Part shown: one piece after another, positions 17,371 through 28,354 of the stretch
Layout: each line of letters begins with the position of its first letter
Position numbering within the stretch: position 1 is the first letter of the stretch
NCBI GenBank assembly: GCA_034521065.1
Contig: JAXHMW010000020.1
Coordinates: 196,986-260,985 of the forward strand
From: Planctomycetota bacterium
GTDB lineage: Bacteria; Planctomycetota; B143-G9
Length of the DNA: 64,000 bases
Reading direction: 5' to 3'
Notes under the pieces: generated by a model
The model's database searches: none
The model's input: the letters and a program-made list of their open reading frames with translations, nothing else
Told to the model about the DNA's origin: nothing
Position numbers and translations under genes: made by a program

Positions 17371-20153
17371 TTGGCACCGAAGCGCAACATAGCGATTATC
17401 CTGATATCAGTCACGCTGCTCGCCGTTTGTGGGGTGCTTATAGCCTACTGGCGGTTTTCGCGTCTTCGGATTTTCGAATGACAGCCGCCGAGAGGCAGTA
17501 CGTCAAAAATTTCGACCCGCTCAAGGTCGGCTACGTATCCGATGACGCCCCCTTTTCATACTCCCTGCCCTCCGGCCAACCTGCCGGCATCTATCCCGAA
17601 GCACTCCGCGAACTCGCCCACAAGCTCGGAATCTCCATCGAATTCGTTGACCTGACACGCTCGGACTCTTCTGCCGCATTGAGGTCAGGAGTCGTTCATG
17701 CTATTGTCGCCATCGACCAGGAGACGAAGCTCCGCTCAGCCCTTCCTGCCGGTAAAATTTTTGACATCCCTCTTGTTATCTACACAATGCGGGCATCCCC
17801 TGAAGTTAAGGCGGCCAAAGACCTTAAAATAATTGGAACTGTTCGTGGTGACCCTTCCGAGAAATATCTGCGACATAACGTTTCCTCTGTAATGCTCGAA
17901 CGTTCCGACAGCTACGAGGAGATGTTCGTAAAACTGATCAAGGGCGAGATACCTGCCATGAGCGGCGAACGCCAAGTGATAGAGCACATCGCTCGGAAAA
18001 GGGGCGTTGCCGGTCACATACAGGTTTTCGGGCTTCCGCTTTTCGTGCTATCGAGTTCCGTTTACGTTCACGTCAGGAACGAAAAGCTTCCGGGCCTTTT
18101 CGAACGCGCCATTCGCTGCATGGTAGAAGACGGTACTCTCGAGAGAATCGAACAGATACACACCGGAGTTTCGATAACGGATTACACGTGCGAGGCAGAG
18201 AAGAGCTTGTATTCTGCAGTAGCCCTTCTGCTGTTGTCGTTTGTAATACTCGCCGTAGCACTATTCGTGGGCGGAAGGCCGCAAAGGTCGGAAGAGGTTG
18301 AGATTCGGTCAGGCAATCCCTTTGAGGACTACGGGGGCGACGTTCCCCTCAATCGCTACTCGGTCCGCCATCTTTTGACGGGCCTCACGCGAACTCTGCG
18401 AATGACCACCGCGGTATTCCGTACACCCTCCGGAGAAGATTTGAGCGTTCCTGAGAACATCCGCTTCACCGAGGGTGAAGACCTCGAAACCCTTCTCGAT
18501 GTGGACTCCGATGTAATCGAACAGCACTCTAAGTACCATGAATGGTACGGCGCGAAACTGCCGAGAGGCAGCCGGATAGCGTTCCGCAGCAGATTGCGCA
18601 CGCTTACGCCGGAATTGAAGATGCTTTGCTATGTTTACGGAGCACTTCTTGAAGCGGCGGCTGAAGGTTCTCAGTACGCCGCTGGCGAGAGGGCCCTGCG
18701 TGAGATCGTAAAGACCGGTTTCGAACTCAAAGACCAGTTGCTTTGCGTTCTTAACAAGCGACTCGAGGTCGAAGAGGCATACGGCTGCATTGTGCCGGTG
18801 AGCGCAGATATGGTTCTGAACAAGGATTTGGCCGACTTTCTCGACCAGCGGGGCCTGAAAGGTGTCAGGAAGAATATCGAGCAAGTTGCGCGAAGCTCCC
18901 GATTCGATGCGAAGGGCGATATTCTACTGCTCTCCGAAAACAACCGCATTCCCTGTTCATACCGTATGAGCTACCGTGTTCTCAGCCGAGGCGACCGGAT
19001 AATTATCGCCATTCGTGACGAACGAACGCCCACGCGCATCGAAGAGGCAGCGAGAAAAGCGTATCGATTCGACTCTCTCGGCTCACTCGCCGTAGCCTTC
19101 ATAAGCGCGTTCGAAACAATGTTCCTGGCTATACAAGGATACGCGGGCATCCTGCTTCGGGAAAATGACCCGCAAAGCGGAGAAAGACACGTTTCACGAA
19201 TCTCCGACTACGCAGAAAGGGGAAGGAGGCTCTCCGAGAAGCTCCTGATAATCGCCCTGGGCTCGTGGCCCTCGCCCCAGTCAATGGAACTCACCGGCTT
19301 CATGAACGAGACAATGCGCACCCTTGTAACCGCCTTTCCCGACCACGAGATCGTCACACGTGCTGTCAAAGGCGAACATCACATCGATACCGACCCCGAC
19401 CTCCTTCTTCTGTGCATCTTCGCGCTCCTGTCGAACGCCATCGAGGCATCTCCGCCACAAAGCGAGGTGATAGTAGAGTCGAAAATAACAGAGTTGCCCG
19501 AGGATTACAAAGTACATTCCGGCGTGCTGAATCACGGCGCATATGCAATTATCCAGGTCACCGACAAGGGCGAGGGAATGAACAGCTCCGAAGCTGCCAT
19601 GGCGATAGAACCCTTCCAGACCACCAAGGACGAATCTCACAGGGGGCTCGGCCTCACGGTCACCGTCCACGCAGTCAACGCCTTCGGTGGCGGGCTGGAG
19701 ATAGATACGGCAAAGGGCAAGGGCACCACGGCCAAGCTCTATGTTCCCACCCGTGAACGCTCATCACTGCGCGACCAAGACCTTACGGGCAGCGGGGAAA
19801 ACCTTCTTCTCGTCAATCCCTCCCAGGAGTGGCTCGACATACTCTCCAGCATCTTCACCCGTTTCAACTACCAGACCTCCAACGTTCTTCTGACCACCGA
19901 CGCAAAGCGCATCCTGCAATCTCAGGAGTTCGATGCGATAGTGTACGAACCCGAACGTGCCGGTGCCGACACCGTCCTGTTCATCGAGGACGTCCGGCGC
20001 TTGCACCCCATGCTCCCGATAATCGTCATCCTCGCCGCCGGCGAGACCCGCGCATTCAACAAGCTGATACAGGACGACAAGACGTACGTGGTGGTTCGCA
20101 CTGGCGACGTGAAGCACATTGTTCACCAGATTCGCAAGATAATCCGTTCCTGA
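17371..20153 (+). CDS. sensor-kinase-like protein: periplasmic solute-binding domain, TM, degenerate HisKA, HATPase_c, pseudo-receiver
   Basis: Track ORF 17427..20153. An N-terminal signal anchor (LAPKRNIAIILISVTLLAVCGVLIAYW, from TTG 17371 with an AAGAGGA SD) is in another frame and joins at the T-run at 17471-17474. N-box LLSNAIEA, G1 DKGEGM and G2 GLGL are present, but the H-box position reads AFISAFETMF with no His. Confidence 0.7.
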
Positions 20154-20222: not shown

Positions 20223-22153
20223 TCAGACGATGAATTTGCCGCGCTCCGTGTAGGAGGTGTGGAGCAGCTTGTGGCTGATGTGACCACAAGGTCCGTCCGT
20301 GAGGAACTCCTCGTAGACCTGAGTGATGTGAGGGTTCTCGTGGGACTTTCGGAGATCGAGCCCCATATCCTCGCTGTAGATGGCCTTCGCACGGGCCGCG
20401 CGGATTTCCTCGTTGGTGGGAATCGGCATTCCGCCGCCGCCGAGACAGCCACCTGGACAGGCCATGAACTCGATGAAGTGGCATTCGGAGAACTTGCCGC
20501 CGGCCTTGATGTCCTCCATGACCTTCTTCGCGTTCGCGGTTCCGTGGCAGACCGCAACCTTAAGAGTGGCTCCTTCGAGGAAGTCCCAACTCTCGAACAG
20601 GTTGGCGATTAGTCCGGGAACCTCGCCGAGTTGAGGTATCTCGAGTTCGGCGTACTTCACGCCCTCGAAACCTCGCACAGGTTCGACGTTCATGTTCTCG
20701 AACACGTCTTCGACCTTGAGGCCTGTGACGAGTTCCACTACCGTACGGATGGCCGCTTCCATGACACCACCGGTTGCGCCGAAGATGAGACCGGCACCGG
20801 ATGCCTCTCCGAACGGGTCGTCGAAGTTGCTGCCGGGGATGTTGGGAAGGTCAACGCCGCTTTCCTTGATCATCTGTGCCATTTCGCGGGCGGTAAGGCC
20901 GTAATCAACGTCCTTGAACCCGCTGTCGCCCATCTCGGGACGATTGCACTCGTACTTCTTCGCCGAGCACGGCATAAGTGCGACCGTGACGATGTTCGCC
21001 GGGTCAATGCCGCGTTTCTTGGCGTAGTACGTCTTGAGAAGTGCGCCGAACATCTGCTGAGGGCTCTTGGCCGAGGACACGTTGTCGAGGTACTCCGGAT
21101 AGAAGTGCTCGATGAACTTGACCCAGCCGGGAGAGCAGGACGTGAACTGCGGAAGTGCGACGTCCTTGCCGTTCTTCAGAGCGTCCTGCAGACGCAGAAG
21201 CAGCTCGGTGCCTTCCTCGATGATCGTGAGGTCGGCGGTGAAGTTGGTGTCGAACACCGCATCGAATCCGCAACGGCGGATTGCAGTGTTCAGCTCACGG
21301 GTGACGGAGGTGCCGGGCTCGAGCCCGAACTCCTCGCCGATTGCCGCACGGGGAGAGGAGCGGTCTGCATGACGACGTGTTTGTTGGGGTCGTCAATGGC
21401 ATCCCAGATTTCATCGCGCGGGTCGTTAGCGCGAAGTGCGCCGGTCGGACAGCGGTTGATGCACTGACCGCAGTTGATGCACACTACATCTGCGAGGTCC
21501 TTGTCCATGAAGGCCGCGATCTCGGTCTGGTCACCGCGGTTGATGGCCTCATAGACTCCGACTTCCTGAAGGTCGATGCAGGTGCGCACGCAGCGACGAC
21601 ACTGGATACACTTGTCCATATCGCGAACTACTGAGTAGCTCGAGTTGTCAACTACGTGCTTCCTCTCGGTCGGATGACCGAAGCGGAAGTGGTCAACGCC
21701 GTATTCATCTGCAAGCGATTGCAGTTCGCAGTTGTTGTTGCGGAAGCAGGCGTAGCACTCGCCGTAATGCTCGGAAAGCAAGAGGTCGAGTACGTGTCTG
21801 CGGGCCCTGCGAACCTTTTCGGAGTATGTTTTTACGACGATGGGCTGTGTGATGGGGAAAGCACAGGCTGCCTGCAGCAGGTTCTGTCCCTCGATCTCGA
21901 CAACGCAAAGGCGGCAAACGCCAGCGATGCACAGGTCATCATGATGACAGAGAGTGGGGATCCGAACGCCTATCTTTTTGGCTGCCTCGAGTATGGTCGT
22001 CCCGAGCGGGACCTTCAGCACGTTGCCGTCTATGGTGATCTTTACCTGTGCGCCGATGGCGTCCTGGTTGTCACCACCGTCAACGGTGTGTGGCTTGTGG
22101 CTCTTGGGCGCCCGGGAAGTGCTTTCGGAGAACGGCTTTTTCGATTCGCTCAT
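20223..22153 (-). CDS. hydA: [FeFe]-hydrogenase catalytic subunit (one frame change)
   Basis: N-terminal 2Fe-2S and ferredoxin motifs (CIQCRRCVRTC, CINCGQCINRCP). H-cluster motifs MPCSAKKYE and EFMACPGGCLGGGG. Track ORFs 21290..22153 and 20223..21257 join at a C-run near 21350-21356 (QTAP..RAAIGEEFG). Confidence 0.9.
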
Positions 22154-22162
22154 TGTGCCTCC

Positions 22163-23347
22163 TTAGCGGGTCTGAGTACGCCCGAGTATTTCTGGCTGGA
22201 AGTTTTCTACGATGGAAAGGAATGCGTTGGGGCTGCTCTGTCCGAGCCCGCACTTGGACGCGACCCTCATGGTCTCGCCAAGCCTGACAATCTCCTTGAG
22301 ATAGCGGTTGGAGCACTCGCCGTTTTCGAGCATTTCCACGCATTCGAGGAGCTTCACGTTGCCGATACGGCAGGGGGTGCACTGTCCGCAGGACTCTTCC
22401 TTGAAGAACTCGAGGAAGTTGCGGGCGATGTCGAGCATGTCGGTATCGGGGCCGAAGATGATTATCGAACCACCGGTAGAGACATCCTCGTAAGAGATGG
22501 TTCGGCCGAAGGAGTCGGCCGGAACGCAGTGACCGGCTGCTCCGCCGATTTGCACTGCTTTGGCGTTCTCACCTCCGACATGTTCGAGGAGTTCCTTCAC
22601 GGTGATGCCCAGGGGCAGTTCGTAAACGCCCGGGTTCTCACAGTCACCTGAAACGCTTAAGAGCTTGGAACCCTTGGATTTGCCGGTGCCGTGTTCCTTG
22701 AACCATTCCGCGCCCTTGTCGAGGATGTGCGGGATGGTCGCGAAGGTCTCGACGTTGTTGACGATCGTGGGGCAACCGTTGTAGCCCTGCGTGACGGGAT
22801 ATGGAGGACGGTTGCGGGGTTCGCCGCGGTTGCCTTCCATGGACTCGATAAGAGCCGTTTCCTCGCCGCACACGTACGCGCCGGCACCCATGAAGATTTC
22901 GATATCGAACGAGAAGTCTTCCTTGCCCTTGATGTTCTCACCGAGCAGGTTCTTCTCGCGACGGGCGGCGAGCACGTTCTCGAGATGCTCACGCATGTAG
23001 GTGTACTCTCCGCGCAGGTACACCATGCCCTGTTTTGCGCCGACGCAGTATGCGGCCACGGTCATTCCCTCGAAGACATAATCCGCATATTCCATGAGGA
23101 GAACCCTGTCCTTGAAAGTGCCGGGTTCGCCTTCATCGGCGTTACATATGACGTACTTGCAGTCGCCTGTAGTGGTTGCGCAGAAGTTCCACTTGACACC
23201 AGTGGGGAAGCCTGCTCCGCCACGGCCCTTGAGCTCGGAGTTGCGGACTGCGAGCAGAGTGGCCGAACGCCCGACTTCCAGTGCCTTCTCAAGGCCTGCT
23301 TCAGGTTCGATCTCTCTGAAAAGGATGGGGCCCTTTCTTGTCGTCAT
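22163..23347 (-). CDS. hydB: NuoF-like flavoprotein subunit of the hydrogenase
   Basis: Motifs GRGGAGFPTGVKW, EGEPGTFKDR and CGQCTPCRIG. A strong GGAGG SD precedes downstream hydA. At 394 aa it is core only. Confidence 0.9.
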   Translation of the reverse strand: MTTRKGPILFREIEPEAGLEKALEVGRSATLLAVRNSELKGRGGAGFPTGVKWNFCATTTGDCKYVICNADEGEPGTFKDRVLLMEYADYVFEGMTVAAYCVGAKQGMVYLRGEYTYMREHLENVLAARREKNLLGENIKGKEDFSFDIEIFMGAGAYVCGEETALIESMEGNRGEPRNRPPYPVTQGYNGCPTIVNNVETFATIPHILDKGAEWFKEHGTGKSKGSKLLSVSGDCENPGVYELPLGITVKELLEHVGGENAKAVQIGGAAGHCVPADSFGRTISYEDVSTGGSIIIFGPDTDMLDIARNFLEFFKEESCGQCTPCRIGNVKLLECVEMLENGECSNRYLKEIVRLGETMRVASKCGLGQSSPNAFLSIVENFQPEILGRTQTR

Positions 23348-23862
23348 CAGTGAGCCTCCTTACTTTGAAAACTGGACGCGCTGAAGTGCTTTCTGCATGC
23401 TTCGATGAGGTCGTGAACCATCATTGGAGTCACGTGGGTGTAAACCTCGTCGTTAATGAGCATTGCAGGCCCCTGGTCGCACATCCCGATACAATTTACG
23501 TATTCGAGCGTGAAACGACCGTCCGGGGTACTCTCTCCGAACTTGATGCCGAGTTCATTCTCGAGCTGGGTGGCAACAGCGTCTTTGCCTGCGAGGTTGC
23601 ACGAGATGGTCTGGCACAGACGGATGATGAACTTGCCCTTCTTGTTCTGAGAGAGGAAGTGGTAGAAAGTGACTACAGCGTAAACTTCCACGGGGTGGAT
23701 ACCGAGTTTGTTCGCGATATCCTGCATAGCGAAGTCGGGCACGTGCTGGTACTTGCGCTGGATCTCCTCAAGTATGGGAAGGAGACCTCTGCGCTCGTTG
23801 TCGTACTCCTGCGCCATCTTCGCGATGTCTTGTTTCATCAGGTTACGTTCGCTTTCGAGCAT
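23347..23862 (-). CDS. hydC: NuoE-like thioredoxin-fold [2Fe-2S] subunit of the hydrogenase
   Basis: Motifs LCQTISCNLAG and CIGMCDQGPAMLIND. AAGGAGG SD before ATG 23862. The stop overlaps the hydB start (ATGA). Confidence 0.85.
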   Translation of the reverse strand: MLESERNLMKQDIAKMAQEYDNERRGLLPILEEIQRKYQHVPDFAMQDIANKLGIHPVEVYAVVTFYHFLSQNKKGKFIIRLCQTISCNLAGKDAVATQLENELGIKFGESTPDGRFTLEYVNCIGMCDQGPAMLINDEVYTHVTPMMVHDLIEACRKHFSASSFQSKEAH

Positions 23863-23872
23863 CAGGTCCTCC

Positions 23873-24250
23873 TTAAGACTTTCCCAGAAGCGCCTTGATT
23901 TTGGACACCAAGACCTTGGGTTCGACCGGCTTTTCGATGTATTCGTCCACCGGAACCATTTCCGAGTCCTTATCGAAGTCGAGACCAAAGGTCTTACCGA
24001 CCGAGGTCATCATAACGATAGGCGTCTCGATCTTGCGGGCACGAAGCTCCTGCGCCATGACAAACCCGTCGTCGGGTGCGTCCATCATGACATCAAGAAC
24101 AATCAGGTCGGGGTTTTCACTGTCAACCATGGATTTTCCATCCGTGATATTGGATGCGGAAATCACATCGAACCCCTCGTTTTCAAGTACGATCTGTGTT
24201 GATTCGACGACATCGGGGTCATCATCAACGATCAAGATCCTTGCCATCAT
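23873..24250 (-). CDS. single-domain response regulator (CheY-like receiver)
   Basis: Motifs ILIVDDD, the phospho-Asp in LIVLDVMMD, VMMTS and EKP. The start overlaps the upstream gene. Confidence 0.85.
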   Translation of the reverse strand: MMARILIVDDDPDVVESTQIVLENEGFDVISASNITDGKSMVDSENPDLIVLDVMMDAPDDGFVMAQELRARKIETPIVMMTSVGKTFGLDFDKDSEMVPVDEYIEKPVEPKVLVSKIKALLGKS

Positions 24251-25317
24251 TCCTCCTTAGGTCTGGCTTTTGAAAAATCGTTACGTATTGCCCGCTCCCC
24301 GGGGCCGGGGGTGGAACCGAGAACGAGCGTGTTTCCGTTGCTTTCCAGCCGGTGAAGCAGGAAGCCGCTCGCAGAAAACATGCGCGAAAGGTTGGACCTG
24401 CTCGGTACCGGCACCGAAAACTCATCGCTGGATGAACGACCACGCTCGACCACGAGTATCAGACCGGTAGGTCTGAGAATGTGGCGCATTCTTCGCAGGA
24501 ACGCGGACTGATCCAGAATTGTTGAAAAGGTATTGTTGCACAGCACGAAGTCAACGCTCGCGGCTGGGAGAGTGAGAGCGAGAAGGTCTTCGTGGCGTAG
24601 CTCGACACGATTGCCGAGCCTCTCCCTCGCCTTCTCCAAAGCAGCGGCGGAAAAGTCAACGCCGATTACCCTGCCGTCAGGCTGAACACGCTCGTAGAGT
24701 GCGAGTGTGCCGCGACCCGTGCCACAACCGGCATCGAGAGCGGCCTTGCCACGTAGGGAAAACTCGTCGAGCGTGGTTTGCAGATAGGCGGTATCGGTTT
24801 CGTCATCGAGGCTGCCGCCGTCGTCGAGAAAGGAATGAAGCGGGTTGCTCTCGTGAAGGGGAACGTCAGAAGGACGGGGCGAAAAGTCCGAAAGAGCCTC
24901 GAAGGGGGCATTGACCGTCTCGACGTGCTGAACACCCTCGATGGAGGACGCGCGCTGTTCCAGCTCGCGCACCACACTGGCCTCTCCGAGCAAACCGAAA
25001 ACTTGCAGACAGGAGTTGCCACGCAAGGGTATATCCATCTCGCCCTTGATCACGGAAGAATAACTGCTTCGGAGCGCTCCGAGCCTTTCCGTGACACGGG
25101 AAAACATCCTGGAGTAAAAAACGGATGCGATGGCGGCCACAACGCCGGTTCTGCGCGTGCCACGAATGTTGGAAAGCCTCTTGCGGACGAGATCGCGGAT
25201 GGCCTCTGAACGGTTCCTGTAACCCGATGCGGTGACGAATTCGTCGAAGCTCTTTACGAGCCTCTCCTCCATACTCACACCAAATCTGTACAGGGCGTTA
25301 TCAGCAGTTTTCTTCAT
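24247..25317 (-). CDS. NikR-like ribbon-helix-helix/ACT regulator fused to a class I SAM-dependent methyltransferase
   Basis: The N-terminus YRFGVSMEERLVKSFDEFVTASGYRNRSEAIRDLVRKRL aligns with NikR RHH domains and is followed by an ACT-like domain. The C-terminal half carries motif I LDAGCGTGRGTL. I chose start ATG 25317 by homology; 25350 and 25356 are also possible. Confidence 0.7.
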   Translation of the reverse strand: MKKTADNALYRFGVSMEERLVKSFDEFVTASGYRNRSEAIRDLVRKRLSNIRGTRRTGVVAAIASVFYSRMFSRVTERLGALRSSYSSVIKGEMDIPLRGNSCLQVFGLLGEASVVRELEQRASSIEGVQHVETVNAPFEALSDFSPRPSDVPLHESNPLHSFLDDGGSLDDETDTAYLQTTLDEFSLRGKAALDAGCGTGRGTLALYERVQPDGRVIGVDFSAAALEKARERLGNRVELRHEDLLALTLPAASVDFVLCNNTFSTILDQSAFLRRMRHILRPTGLILVVERGRSSSDEFSVPVPSRSNLSRMFSASGFLLHRLESNGNTLVLGSTPGPGERAIRNDFSKARPKEE

Positions 25318-25487
25318 GCGTGTTACGATTCTACCAGTCGTGCCACGCATTACCAAGGTTTTTTGTGCGTTTTTTCACCCGTCCTTTTACCTGAGTCGCA
25401 ACCCTTTTCAGATGCGGATTCGGGAGCTTTTGAAGAGGGCTGTTTTTCGCCATCGCGAGTTACGTGAAAACAGGAACGAAAAATAAC

Positions 25488-25515
25488 TTGAAAGTTTGAG
25501 CTAACAAACTATAGT
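25488..25515 (+). promoter_or_regulatory. sigma70-type promoter of the dtxR-feoAB unit, probably giving a leaderless or near-leaderless mRNA
   Basis: TTGAAA (25488-25493), a 16-nt spacer, TATAGT (25510-25515), then only 7 nt to ATG 25523 with no SD. The spacer contains the inverted repeat GTTTG-N6-CAAAC. Confidence 0.45.
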
Positions 25516-25522
25516 TGCTGAC

Positions 25523-25993
25523 ATGTTATCCAAACATCAGACGACTCACAGTCAGCAGGACTACCTCGAAGCCGTTCTCGTACTTGAAAAGGAAAACGGC
25601 GATGCGAGGGTGAACGATATAGCGAAGAGCGTGGGCGTGGGCAAGTCTTCCGCGAGCATCGCAATTCGCAACCTTCGTGAACTCGGCTTCGTCGAACACG
25701 GCCATTACGGAGCCGTAGTACTTACCAAGACCGGGCGCGAGGTGGCCACGGAAATACACCATCGCCACATGGTCCTGCACAGGTTCCTCGTGGACCAGTT
25801 GGGACTGCCCGAGGACATCGCGGAGCAGGATGCATGCCAGATGGAACACGTTGTTTCGGCTCGTTTCATGAAGCGGTTGATAAAATTCCTCGAATTCGCC
25901 TCGGAATGCCCTCTCGGAGGAGTCTTCTGGGATGAAGAAAGAGATACCTATGTTTGCTACATCAGGGAGAACAGCACCGAAGATGAGACATAA
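25523..25993 (+). CDS. DtxR/MntR-family metal-dependent transcriptional repressor
   Basis: Winged HTH (QQDYLEAVLVLEKENGDARVNDIAKSVGVGKSSASIAIRNLRELGFV) followed by a dimerisation/metal-binding helix region. Confidence 0.85.
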   Translation: MLSKHQTTHSQQDYLEAVLVLEKENGDARVNDIAKSVGVGKSSASIAIRNLRELGFVEHGHYGAVVLTKTGREVATEIHHRHMVLHRFLVDQLGLPEDIAEQDACQMEHVVSARFMKRLIKFLEFASECPLGGVFWDEERDTYVCYIRENSTEDET

Positions 25994-26289: not shown

Positions 26290-28354
26290 ATGGCTTTTGA
26301 CCACACCTTCTACCTTGCAGGCAACCCAAACTCCGGCAAGACGAGTCTCTTCAACTCCATTACAGGCCTTCGCCATCACACCGGCAACTATCCCGGAGTA
26401 ACCGTTGAGAGACTCGAAGGCTCGAAGACCTTCAAGGACAGGAAACTGCGCTTCATCGACCTGCCGGGCTCGTACAACCTCACTTCCTATTCGATTGAAG
26501 AACGAGTCGCGCGCGATGCGCTTCTCGAAGACCCTCCCGATGCCGTAATCAACGTAGTTGACGCGACAAATCTCGAACGCAATCTTTACCTTGCGCTCTC
26601 TCTCATGGAGATGGGCGTGAACGTGGTCATCGCGCTGAACATGAGCGACCTCGCCAAACGCAATGGCATAATCATCGACACTCGTATGCTCGAGGAGAAC
26701 CTTAAAGTGCCGGTGGTCGAGACTGTCGCGATCAAGGGAGAGGGAGTCGAAGAACTACTTGAGAAGGCAATCGAGAGCACTTCTCGAATAGGCCCCCCGC
26801 TGAAGGTAAACTACGGCAAGGTAATCGAACGCGAACTTGAATTGGTGGAAGAATATCTCGAAGGGCACGAGGAGAAGTTGCGCGGCAATGTCCGCTGGAC
26901 GGCGGTCAAGCTAATCGAGGGCGATGAGAACGTCACTGAGAAGGTAATCGAGAGTCTGGGTGACGAGGACTTTGCGCAGGCGCTCGAGGACGCACGCAAC
27001 CGCATTGAATCCATGTTCAGCGACACTGTCGAAGTGGTTATGGCGGAACGTCGTTACGGCGTGATTTCCGGCGTTTCGCATCCCGCGATTAAGTACACGG
27101 TGGATGCGCGCCACACCTTCTCAGACCAGATTGACATGGTCCTCACGAACCGCTTCGCAGGCATTCCGATTTTTCTCATAATGATGTACTTGGTGTTCTA
27201 CGCCACGTTCAAAGTGGGCGAATACCCCATGCTCTGGCTGGAGTCCTTTTTCGGCTGGCTTTCGGCCTCCATTGCCTCCTCGTGGAGCGAGGCCACCATG
27301 CCGCTGCTGCGTTCTCTGCTAATTGACGGCATAATCGGCGGCGTCGGCGGCGTTCTTGTATTCCTTCCGAATATCATAATCCTGTTCTTCGCCATTGCGC
27401 TTTTGGAGGATTCGGGTTACATGGCCCGGGCTGCATTTCTCACTGACCGCTTCATGCGGGCGATGGGCCTGCCCGGAAAAAGCTTTATTCCAATTCTCGT
27501 GGGCTTCGGATGCACTGTTCCGGCTGTTTCTTGCTACCAGGTCTCTTGATAACGAACGCGATAGGCTCGTGACCATACTCGTGCTTCCGCTGGTAAGTTG
27601 TGGGGCGCGGCTGCCGGTTTTCGCGCTGCTCATCCCCGCGTTTTTCCCCACCGACTGGAGGGGGACGATACTCTTGGGCGTTTATCTTTTCGGAATTCTG
27701 TTGGCTGTCGTGGTGGCGAAAATACTGCGCACAACCACGTTTTCGGGCGAGGATACACCGTTCATCATGGAACTTCCCCCTTACCGCGCTCCTACGCTTC
27801 GCGCGCTGTCCGTACACTGTTGGGACCGCTCGAAGGAATACCTGAAGAAGGCGGGAACGTTCATTCTGATTATATCGGTACTCATATGGGCACTTGGCAA
27901 CTTTCCCACTCCGTCCGAGGAGGACACGCGGGGAATGAGCGAGAACCAGCAGGCCGCCTACGAACTCGAATACTCCGCGCTGGGGCGCATCGGCAGGACC
28001 ATCGAGCCGGTCACCGCGCCCATCGGTTTCGACTGGAAGCTCAACACCGCCCTTCTGGGTGCGACGGCGGCAAAAGAGGTATTCGTCGCACAGACAGCGA
28101 TCGTCTTTTCTCTTGGAGAACAGGACGAGGAGAGCTTAACTCTTCGCAAAAAGCTTTCGGACAACTACACCCCCCTGACCGGCATCGCGCTTATTCTGTT
28201 CTTGCTTATCGCCACACCATGCGGAGCTACAGTGGCAGTCGTTGCGCGAGAGAGTGGAAGCTGGAAGTGGGCGATTCTGCAATGGGTGGGACTGACAGTG
28301 ATGGGCTACCTTTTTGCGCTGGCGGCCTTCCAGCTCGGCGGCTTATTCTACTGA
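26290..28354 (+). CDS. feoB: ferrous iron transporter FeoB (one frame change)
   Basis: G-domain GNPNSGKTSLFN. Track ORFs 26290..27549 and 27395..28354 join at a T-run near 27526-27531 (GFGCTVPAV / LATRSLDNERDRL). Confidence 0.9.

Follow-up and report, generated by a model that had tools for sequence, protein, structure and literature searches.

We analyzed a 64,000-nucleotide (nt) stretch of contig JAXHMW010000020.1 (positions 196,986 to 260,985, assembly GCA_034521065.1, hereafter the window) from a Planctomycetota bacterium, in which a minus-strand gene encodes a fusion of a NikR-like regulator with a class I S-adenosylmethionine (SAM) methyltransferase at the head of an [FeFe]-hydrogenase operon. 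Domain matches, orthologues and an AlphaFold2 (AF2) model place this gene (product P0001) at 24247..25317 on the minus strand. The frame containing it runs uninterrupted over 24247..25356, ends with the TGA stop at 24249..24247 and yields 369 amino acids (aa) when counted from the TTG at 25356, the start adopted in an earlier note on this DNA. The single open frame described there stands, but the start does not: the likely start codon is the ATG at 25317, which gives a product of 356 aa. The ATG is preferred because orthologues begin at the equivalent position, and the TTG is rejected because it sits within the -35 hexamer of a predicted minus-strand promoter.

Three Pfam families cover the 369-aa frame: RHH_1, for the ribbon-helix-helix (RHH) fold (aa 24-61, 25.8 bits, cut-off 20.5), NikR_C (PF08753; aa 75-147, 37.6 bits, cut-off 22, and 40.7 bits in the genome scan) and Methyltransf_25 (aa 207-298, 75 bits), the last accompanied by matches to several sister models. 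The NikR-like RHH/ACT N-terminus recognized in the earlier note is thereby borne out, both matches lying above their cut-offs, and Pfam, AF2 and Foldseek agree with its placing of a class I methyltransferase, with motif I, in frame at the C-terminus. Counted from the ATG, the product consists of a RHH DNA-binding domain (aa 9-53, 25159..25293; RHH_1 match, invariant columns, and a strand plus two helices in the AF2 model), a NikR_C or ACT-like domain (aa 59-138, 24904..25143; NikR_C match, alignment to the NikR structure 2bj1, AF2), a linker of low model confidence (aa 139-190, 24748..24903; family alignment, AF2) and a class I SAM-methyltransferase core (aa 191-336, 24310..24747; Methyltransf_25/31/11 at E 1e-20, AF2, Foldseek match to 3dh0), all on the minus strand.

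The AF2 model of the fusion, proposed in the earlier note and built from a 66-row alignment, resolves RHH, ACT and Rossmann modules with a mean predicted local distance difference test (pLDDT) score of 85. Its ACT domain has the order beta-alpha-beta-beta-alpha-beta at pLDDT >90, and the Rossmann domain (aa 192-335) comprises seven strands (192-196, 216-221, 239-242, 255-261, 281-292, 320-326 and 329-335). Motif I of the methyltransferase, LDAGCGTG, is encoded at 24715..24738. Foldseek returned 3dh0, a minimal SAM methyltransferase of unknown function, as the top match of this domain (TM score 0.79-0.80); the remaining matches are generic small-molecule methyltransferases, so that no substrate can be inferred from the structural neighbours. 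The nearest relatives in sequence are unannotated or carry the generic name 'trans-aconitate methyltransferase', and the closest stand-alone methyltransferases (P0007, P0010) have unrelated neighbour genes that give no substrate clue. A role as DNA methyltransferase was rejected on inspection of the translation, which contains no DPPY/NPPY or PCQ motifs.

The high-affinity nickel ligands of E. coli NikR are H76, H87, H89 and C95 (PMC7055735). When the fusion is aligned by phmmer, without gaps, with the NikR of P. horikoshii (2bj1; E 1.5e-13), its S84, D95, P97 and C103 fall opposite H78, H89, H91 and C97, and these four residues are the counterparts of the E. coli ligands in the same order. 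The earlier note had found no histidine at the RSSYS and MDIPL positions, which the alignment confirms (S84; D95 and P97). It had also noted that NSCLQ keeps the cysteine; this is correct for the window protein (C103) but not for the family, since the ligand columns of five members read S/G/G/Q/N, D/S/S/V/E, P and C/G/G/Y/S. Judged by these alignments, the high-affinity nickel site is lost, with no ligand position keeping a ligand family-wide. The NCBIfam NikR equivalog models, which cover residues 22-148 of the 369-aa frame, all score below cut-off (NF003381, 74.2 bits vs 105; TIGR02793, 48.3 vs 175), and a profile scan found no NikR_C domain elsewhere in the window's genome. Invariant across the family are the DNA-reading strand YRFGVS-E and the helix NRSEAIR and, in the methyltransferase domains, motif I LDAGCG-G, D221, D244-L245 and T263-F264. 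By this conservation, the SAM-binding pocket is under strong purifying selection.

The fusion gene is genuine and extremely rare. Four further full-length clusters (P0002-P0005; 334-366 aa, 40-48% identity) came out of a word-indexed search of 5.8 billion proteins, making 5 clusters in all, and every other match was NikR-only or methyltransferase-only. At E<=1e-30, a HMMER profile search of 1.84 billion representatives gave five proteins, namely P0001, P0003, P0004, P0005 and a distant fusion, P0063. Two of ~185,000 species genomes carry the fusion, the second being the Guaymas Planctomycetota MAG (metagenome-assembled genome) B143_G9; among 61 related genomes it occurs in G000 and G002 only, and G001 holds the first 70 residues of a fusion at a contig end. 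All carriers belong to one Planctomycetota family or are unbinned metagenome contigs, and the source names of the family members are the generic 'CopG family nickel-responsive transcriptional regulator' or 'hypothetical protein'. The earlier note had asked whether a frame error or missed stop, or membership of a common annotated family, might account for the fusion; the same fusion is present in five independent assemblies, and the counts above leave no room for a common family. Our search of the literature on NikR variants and NikR–methyltransferase fusions found no NikR-family protein without the nickel site or joined to a methyltransferase.

Downstream of the fusion gene lie four further minus-strand genes. 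The first (23873..24250; Pfam, orthologues in the same position) encodes a stand-alone CheY-like receiver of 124-125 aa. Its start overlaps the TGA stop of the fusion (ATGATG/TGA), the second ATG, at 24247, being the more likely receiver start. The phosphorylation residues are complete, with the acidic pair in VDDD, the aspartate in LDVMM, the threonine/serine in MMTS and the lysine in IEKP, and PF00072 matches over its full profile length with 72 bits. There follow hydC, for a NuoE-like [2Fe-2S] subunit of 171 aa (23347..23862; translation, Pfam, NCBIfam), hydB, for a flavoprotein of 394 aa that consists of the NuoF core only (22163..23347; same evidence), and hydA, for the [FeFe]-hydrogenase large subunit, which is split over two frames (20223..22153; Pfam, NCBIfam, frame analysis). 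A GGAGGA Shine-Dalgarno sequence occupies the 10-nt gap between receiver and hydC, hydC and hydB overlap by one base, and gaps in the operon do not exceed 10 nt (<=10 nt).

The arrangement put forward in the earlier note, in which the fusion gene overlaps a complete receiver gene and both stand directly upstream of hydC-hydB-hydA with no terminator between, is confirmed by the stop/start overlap, the receiver profile match and the short gaps. A consensus scan found no terminator-like minus-strand site between the operon genes, the sole minus-strand match being a weak 5-bp stem inside hydA, and terminator-like sites in the operon region are fewer than in shuffled sequence. The order fusion–receiver–hydC–hydB–hydA is repeated in L001, L002 and L003, and L095 shows fusion–receiver up to the contig end. 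Translational coupling of the receiver to the fusion is seen in the window, L001, L002 and L003, with a short gap instead in L095. Receiver orthologues in this position are 61-66% identical, compared with only 40-48% for the fusion. Divergent from the operon, on the plus strand, lies a gene for a DtxR/MntR-like repressor (25523..25993; Pfam, NCBIfam), followed by feoA and feoB. This layout is kept in some fusion loci, with dtxR–feoA–feoB also in L001 and L002, and in a sister genus without the fusion.

Only two promoter-like sites were found in 5.7 kb, and they form the divergent promoter pair of the 25357-25522 spacer. The consensus scan placed the minus-strand, sigma-70-type promoter at 25328..25356, where TTGGTA and a TG-extended TAGAAT are separated by a 17-nt spacer; orthologous loci have TTGACA/TATAAT promoters at the equivalent place. 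In the window 10 nt separate the end of the -10 box from the ATG, and across loci the ATG lies 10-19 nt past the -10 box. The predicted operon mRNA is nearly leaderless.

A repeat search revealed an operator-like imperfect inverted repeat over the -10 box and the start codon (25316..25350, minus strand), with 13-nt arms at 25316-25328 and 25338-25350 and a 9-nt spacer. Its 27-bp family-wide core in the window is 25320..25346, GTGGCACGA-ctggtagaa-TCGTAACAC. The consensus of this 27-bp imperfect inverted repeat, GTRRCACGA-N9-TCGTRNYAC, is found at every fusion locus, and the arms are complementary at 7-9 of 9 positions. The conserved upstream block reads GTGGCACGActggTAGAATCGTAACAC in the window, GTAGCACGAatccTATAATCGTGCTAC in L001, GTAACACGAtaaaTATAATCGTGCTAC in L003, GTAACACTAaaacTACAATCGTGCTAC in L090, GTAGCACGAtttcTATAATCGTAGCAC in L095 and GTAGCACGAtttcTATAATCGTGGCAC in L096. 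In a MAFFT alignment of the upstream DNA, the operator block and an A-rich tract upstream of it were the sole conserved DNA.

Ten of the locus records include a fusion promoter, at six distinct places, and each of them has a single copy of the pattern GTRRCACKA-N4-TANAAT-CGTRNYAC, which is absent from all 87 other loci retrieved; the operator pattern is also single in the 2.69-Mb genome. When the genome was scanned with a half-site weight matrix, the window site ranked first, and the second site (C9:67771) lay inside the 3' end of a gene for a NtrC-type regulator. A wider regulon was accordingly rejected, as neither the exact pattern nor the weight matrix gave a second promoter-located site genome-wide. 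The operator can be read as 6-N15-6 or as 9-N9-9, a geometry near that of the E. coli NikR operator, GTATGA-N16-TCATAC (PMC7055735). Such spacing would suit a NikR-type tetramer that carries one RHH dimer at either end. A protein bound to the predicted operator should repress, as the repeat extends over both the -10 box and the transcription start. A lone half-site-like copy, GCGAGTTACG, resembling GCGTGTTACG at 25318-25327, is present at 25455-25464, about 25 nt upstream of the dtxR -35 hexamer; it has no partner arm and may be due to chance.

A loss of the fusion gene informs on its role. In genome G003, which is 98% complete and represents another genus of the same family, dtxR–feoA faces receiver–hydC–hydB–hydA, the fusion gene is missing, and hydA is intact (644 aa). 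The 620-bp spacer in G003 (L104 / L111, G003:C2, about 81500-82200) holds a relic of the promoter and operator, TTACACGAtattTAGAATgacAGCAC, and ~15 decayed codons (..FGISFEERSWKVL.., then a stop) that align with YRFGVSMEERLVKSF. Judged by this relic, the fusion was lost in the G003 lineage and the hydrogenase genes were retained. A dispensable regulator is therefore favoured over a maturation or structural factor, and the comparison argues for the fusion protein being a regulator of this kind and not a maturase.

Taken with the repeat, we consider it probable that the fusion protein is a local DNA-binding repressor of its own operon. More tentatively, our preferred reading is that it acts as a nickel-independent NikR-type autorepressor of fusion–receiver–hydCBA with SAM or S-adenosylhomocysteine (SAH) as input. 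By analogy with NikR, the protein would form a tetramer through its ACT-like domain and seat two RHH dimers on the two half-sites of the 27-bp repeat, so covering the -10 box and the transcription start and blocking RNA polymerase. The allosteric role of the lost nickel site would pass to the C-terminal methyltransferase domain, which most likely binds SAM or SAH as an effector, as in SahR; alternatively, DNA binding could be coupled to the methyltransferase's own catalytic turnover. The co-translated receiver probably contributes a phosphorylation input, which might come from an [FeFe]-hydrogenase-like histidine kinase whose gene lies in another part of the genome. Tetramer, repression, SAM/SAH ligand and receiver cross-talk are all parts that we infer.

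Several observations weigh against this autorepressor model. The right operator arm is only 7/9 symmetric at three of the six loci, and part of the conserved block is merely the -10 box. The family comprises only 5-6 members, too few for covariation tests, and the tetramer is drawn from homology only. Physiology offers no evident motive for placing an NADH-linked hydrogenase under SAM or SAH control, and the fusion loci contain no SAM-cycle genes such as ahcY or metK. Lastly, the methyltransferase domain looks fully catalytically competent by its sequence, and its closest folds are ordinary small-molecule methyltransferases; a sensor-only role is therefore not indicated by the sequence.

NikR and SahR are known regulators that invite close comparison. 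NikR has been described as the only metal-regulated member of the RHH fold (PMC7055735). The fusion shares with the NikR proteins of E. coli, H. pylori and P. horikoshii (1q5v, 2ca9 and 2bj1) 33-39% identity over ~125 aa, a RHH with the R-x-x-x-S strand and NRSEAIRD helix, an ACT-like domain, and a predicted operator of two half-sites about two helical turns apart that overlaps the promoter. Unlike NikR, the fusion family has none of the four high-affinity ligands family-wide, scores too low for the NCBIfam NikR models and has an additional methyltransferase domain of 200 aa; it heads an [FeFe]-hydrogenase operon instead of nickel-uptake or nickel-enzyme genes, and its predicted operator is unrelated in sequence to GTATGA-N16-TCATAC. 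In function, the nearest precedent is SahR, an ArsR-family regulator that responds to SAH (PMC4239095); the SahR predicted for P. mercurii ND132 joins an ArsR-like helix-turn-helix (HTH) to a SAM-dependent methyltransferase domain (10.1101/2022.10.17.512643). By analogy, the fusion would likewise be a local repressor in which a DNA-binding domain is joined to a class I methyltransferase fold able to read the SAM/SAH pool. The two differ in that SahR has a winged HTH and the fusion a predicted RHH plus ACT tetramer, and in that SahR controls a SAM-cycle regulon, whereas the fusion has a hydrogenase operon and a single operator in the genome.

The components are all familiar, namely NikR, class I methyltransferases and transcription factors that sense through a methyltransferase fold; here the well-known nickel sensor seems to have been redirected towards another signal. 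With its metal switch deleted and a SAM-binding domain added, this NikR scaffold offers a compact system for the re-wiring of ACT/RHH tetramer allostery, with a predicted operator and a single well-defined target operon. After SahR, it would be a second and unrelated transcription factor to have taken up a methyltransferase fold, and it bears on the transcriptional control of [FeFe]-hydrogenases in Planctomycetota.

The most serious alternative takes the methyltransferase as the primary function, acting on a small molecule or on a protein such as the receiver or a hydrogenase subunit, with the NikR-like module merely autoregulating expression, or else tethering or oligomerizing the enzyme. Fusions of RHH domains to enzymes have a precedent in PutA, a trigger enzyme in which a RHH domain is joined to proline-catabolic enzymes and which autoregulates its own operon; PutA has no ACT domain, its enzyme is unrelated, and it switches by membrane association. 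Every SAM-binding motif of the fusion is intact and invariant, its fold resembles that of active small methyltransferases, and the stop/start overlap with the receiver gene suggests a stoichiometric partner. Pairing of the NikR scaffold with a methyltransferase has also arisen more than once. The metagenomic protein P0063 (341 aa) has the same three-module NikR::methyltransferase architecture, but it retains the nickel ligands H..HxH..C, its methyltransferase domain is 30% identical, and its NikR part, at 35%, is no closer than any other NikR. The gene (L097, 235-1895) overlaps the start of an ABC-transporter ATPase gene, and P0063 probably arose by a separate fusion within an operon for metal uptake. 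P0063 was rejected as ancestor of the family, given that its methyltransferase is 30% identical vs 50-55% for stand-alone Tam-like methyltransferases.

A further pairing occurs in G019, from another Planctomycetota family, where genes for a metal ABC permease, a class I methyltransferase of 187 aa, a canonical NikR that has the histidine ligands, and a zinc-ribbon protein follow one another in a locus (L088, G019:C475, 18-2216), methyltransferase and nikR being separate neighbours. These cases hint at a recurring functional affinity of the NikR scaffold for small methyltransferases. A general linkage of the two genes was nevertheless rejected, as a methyltransferase lies within 3 kb at only 3/79 NikR loci, which also counts against an enzyme as the primary function. 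The same is true of the retention of receiver-hydCBA without the fusion in G003, and of the AF2 model, which has no substrate-binding cap beyond the minimal Rossmann core; nor does the gene context offer a candidate substrate. On balance we hold an enzymatic primary function to be unlikely, but it is the alternative that fares best.

It is less likely again that receiver and fusion form a split response regulator, in which the phosphorylated receiver docks on the fusion and controls DNA binding, the methyltransferase serving as a docking or oligomerization surface whose ligand is irrelevant. The receiver is always the next gene after the fusion and is the better conserved of the two, and receiver homologues at 34-47% identity with the same alpha4-region insert occur in other hydrogenase loci, one of them adjoining an [FeFe]-hydrogenase-like histidine kinase in the window's genome. 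Receiver-hydCBA survives without the fusion in G003, however, and receiver homologues are also encoded at hydrogenase loci where a NikR-like gene is missing, so the receiver has a fusion-independent function. A docking role would also leave the strict conservation of the SAM residues unexplained.

The receiver homologues point to wider circuitry. At 40-47% identity they are found in other Planctomycetota families, and both loci examined contain hydrogenase-related genes: in G016 (L107, G016:C302) a [NiFe] large subunit, HycI, the receiver homologue and a PilS-like kinase, and in G009 (L106, G009:C123) a HypE-like gene, the receiver homologue, a Fer4_22 protein and a FAD-binding subunit. From their sequences, at 45-47% identity, and their neighbours, the receivers of L106 and L107 look like a hydrogenase-associated stand-alone receiver subfamily in Planctomycetota. 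The window's genome encodes on contig C18 a homologue, 37% identical, of the G016 PilS-like kinase. On the minus strand of contig C12 (L115, 8055-13248) it carries a second hydA-like gene, a gene for an H-cluster kinase, a stand-alone receiver gene and a hybrid kinase gene split by a frame break. The 669-aa kinase has the domains Fer4, H-cluster, FeS, HisKA and HATPase_c and so unites a sensory-type [FeFe]-hydrogenase with a histidine kinase, and the C12 receiver is 34% identical to that of the window with the same unusual insert between beta4 and beta5. The earlier note had called the window receiver an orphan, which is accurate within the operon, where there is no kinase, but not for the genome, where C12 and C18 supply candidates.

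A hydrogen-sensing phosphorelay that feeds the receiver of the hyd operon is thus plausible on the basis of gene content, and the recurrent hydrogenase-associated receiver seems to be part of one circuitry with the H-cluster histidine kinase. It is a good deal more speculative, and in our judgement improbable, that the NikR scaffold is itself the output of such a circuit, with the C12 kinase signalling to the receiver, the receiver docking on the fusion, and the methyltransferase methylating the receiver or itself. If true, this would amount to chemotaxis-like covalent adaptation acting on NADH-linked [FeFe]-hydrogenase transcription, with reversible protein methylation instead of a metal as the switch. 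As a partner of the receiver we also considered a plus-strand kinase-like sensor at 17427..20153 and rejected it, because it is convergent, has no HisKA match and has no similar-sized counterpart beside G003 hydA in the gene list. The protein itself has 908 aa with SBP_bac_3 and HATPase_c domains, and its gene converges on hydA.

We think it very doubtful that the fusion still senses a metal (Ni, Fe or another) at a new site, such as the D-PLHE-NPLH motif of the linker or the retained E38/D42. PLHE-NPLH is kept in 4/5 family members, and E38 and D42, the equivalents of residues E30 and D34 in the low-affinity/K+ site of E. coli NikR (PMC7055735), are retained; in addition, a DtxR-FeoAB iron module lies nearby and the hydrogenase is rich in iron. 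The linker motif is missing in P0005, however, and lies in a low-confidence, probably flexible segment, the four canonical ligand positions keep no ligand across the family, and DtxR already serves iron sensing at the locus. Finally, the chance that the fusion is spurious, created from a nikR-like gene and an adjacent methyltransferase gene by misassembly or a frameshift error, is negligible: indel-type frame breaks do occur nearby in the same assembly (hydA, feoB), but four other clusters, whose samples and assemblers differ, show the uninterrupted architecture and the conserved linker, and the artefact is rejected because orthologues from independent assemblies carry the same fusion.

The frame breaks themselves may have a common cause. 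In hydA, tblastn with the intact L001 orthologue shows a one-base shift from frame -1 to -3 near 21350-21356, which resembles the gain or loss of one base in a short run of G, be it an assembly error or a real pseudogene. On the plus strand, feoB is split likewise into frames 26290..27549 and 27395..28354, with the break at 27528-27530 at a short T run, and the L001 orthologue is continuous (696 aa). Together, the breaks in hydA, feoB and contig C12 suggest systematic indel errors in the assembly. A further peculiarity of HydA is the H-cluster motif TSCSPGW (window ~21120-21145), which also occurs in the 78-80% identical orthologue of L001 (11565-12842). Because this orthologue shares it, the Cys-to-Ser replacement in the motif is a conserved trait and not a sequencing error.

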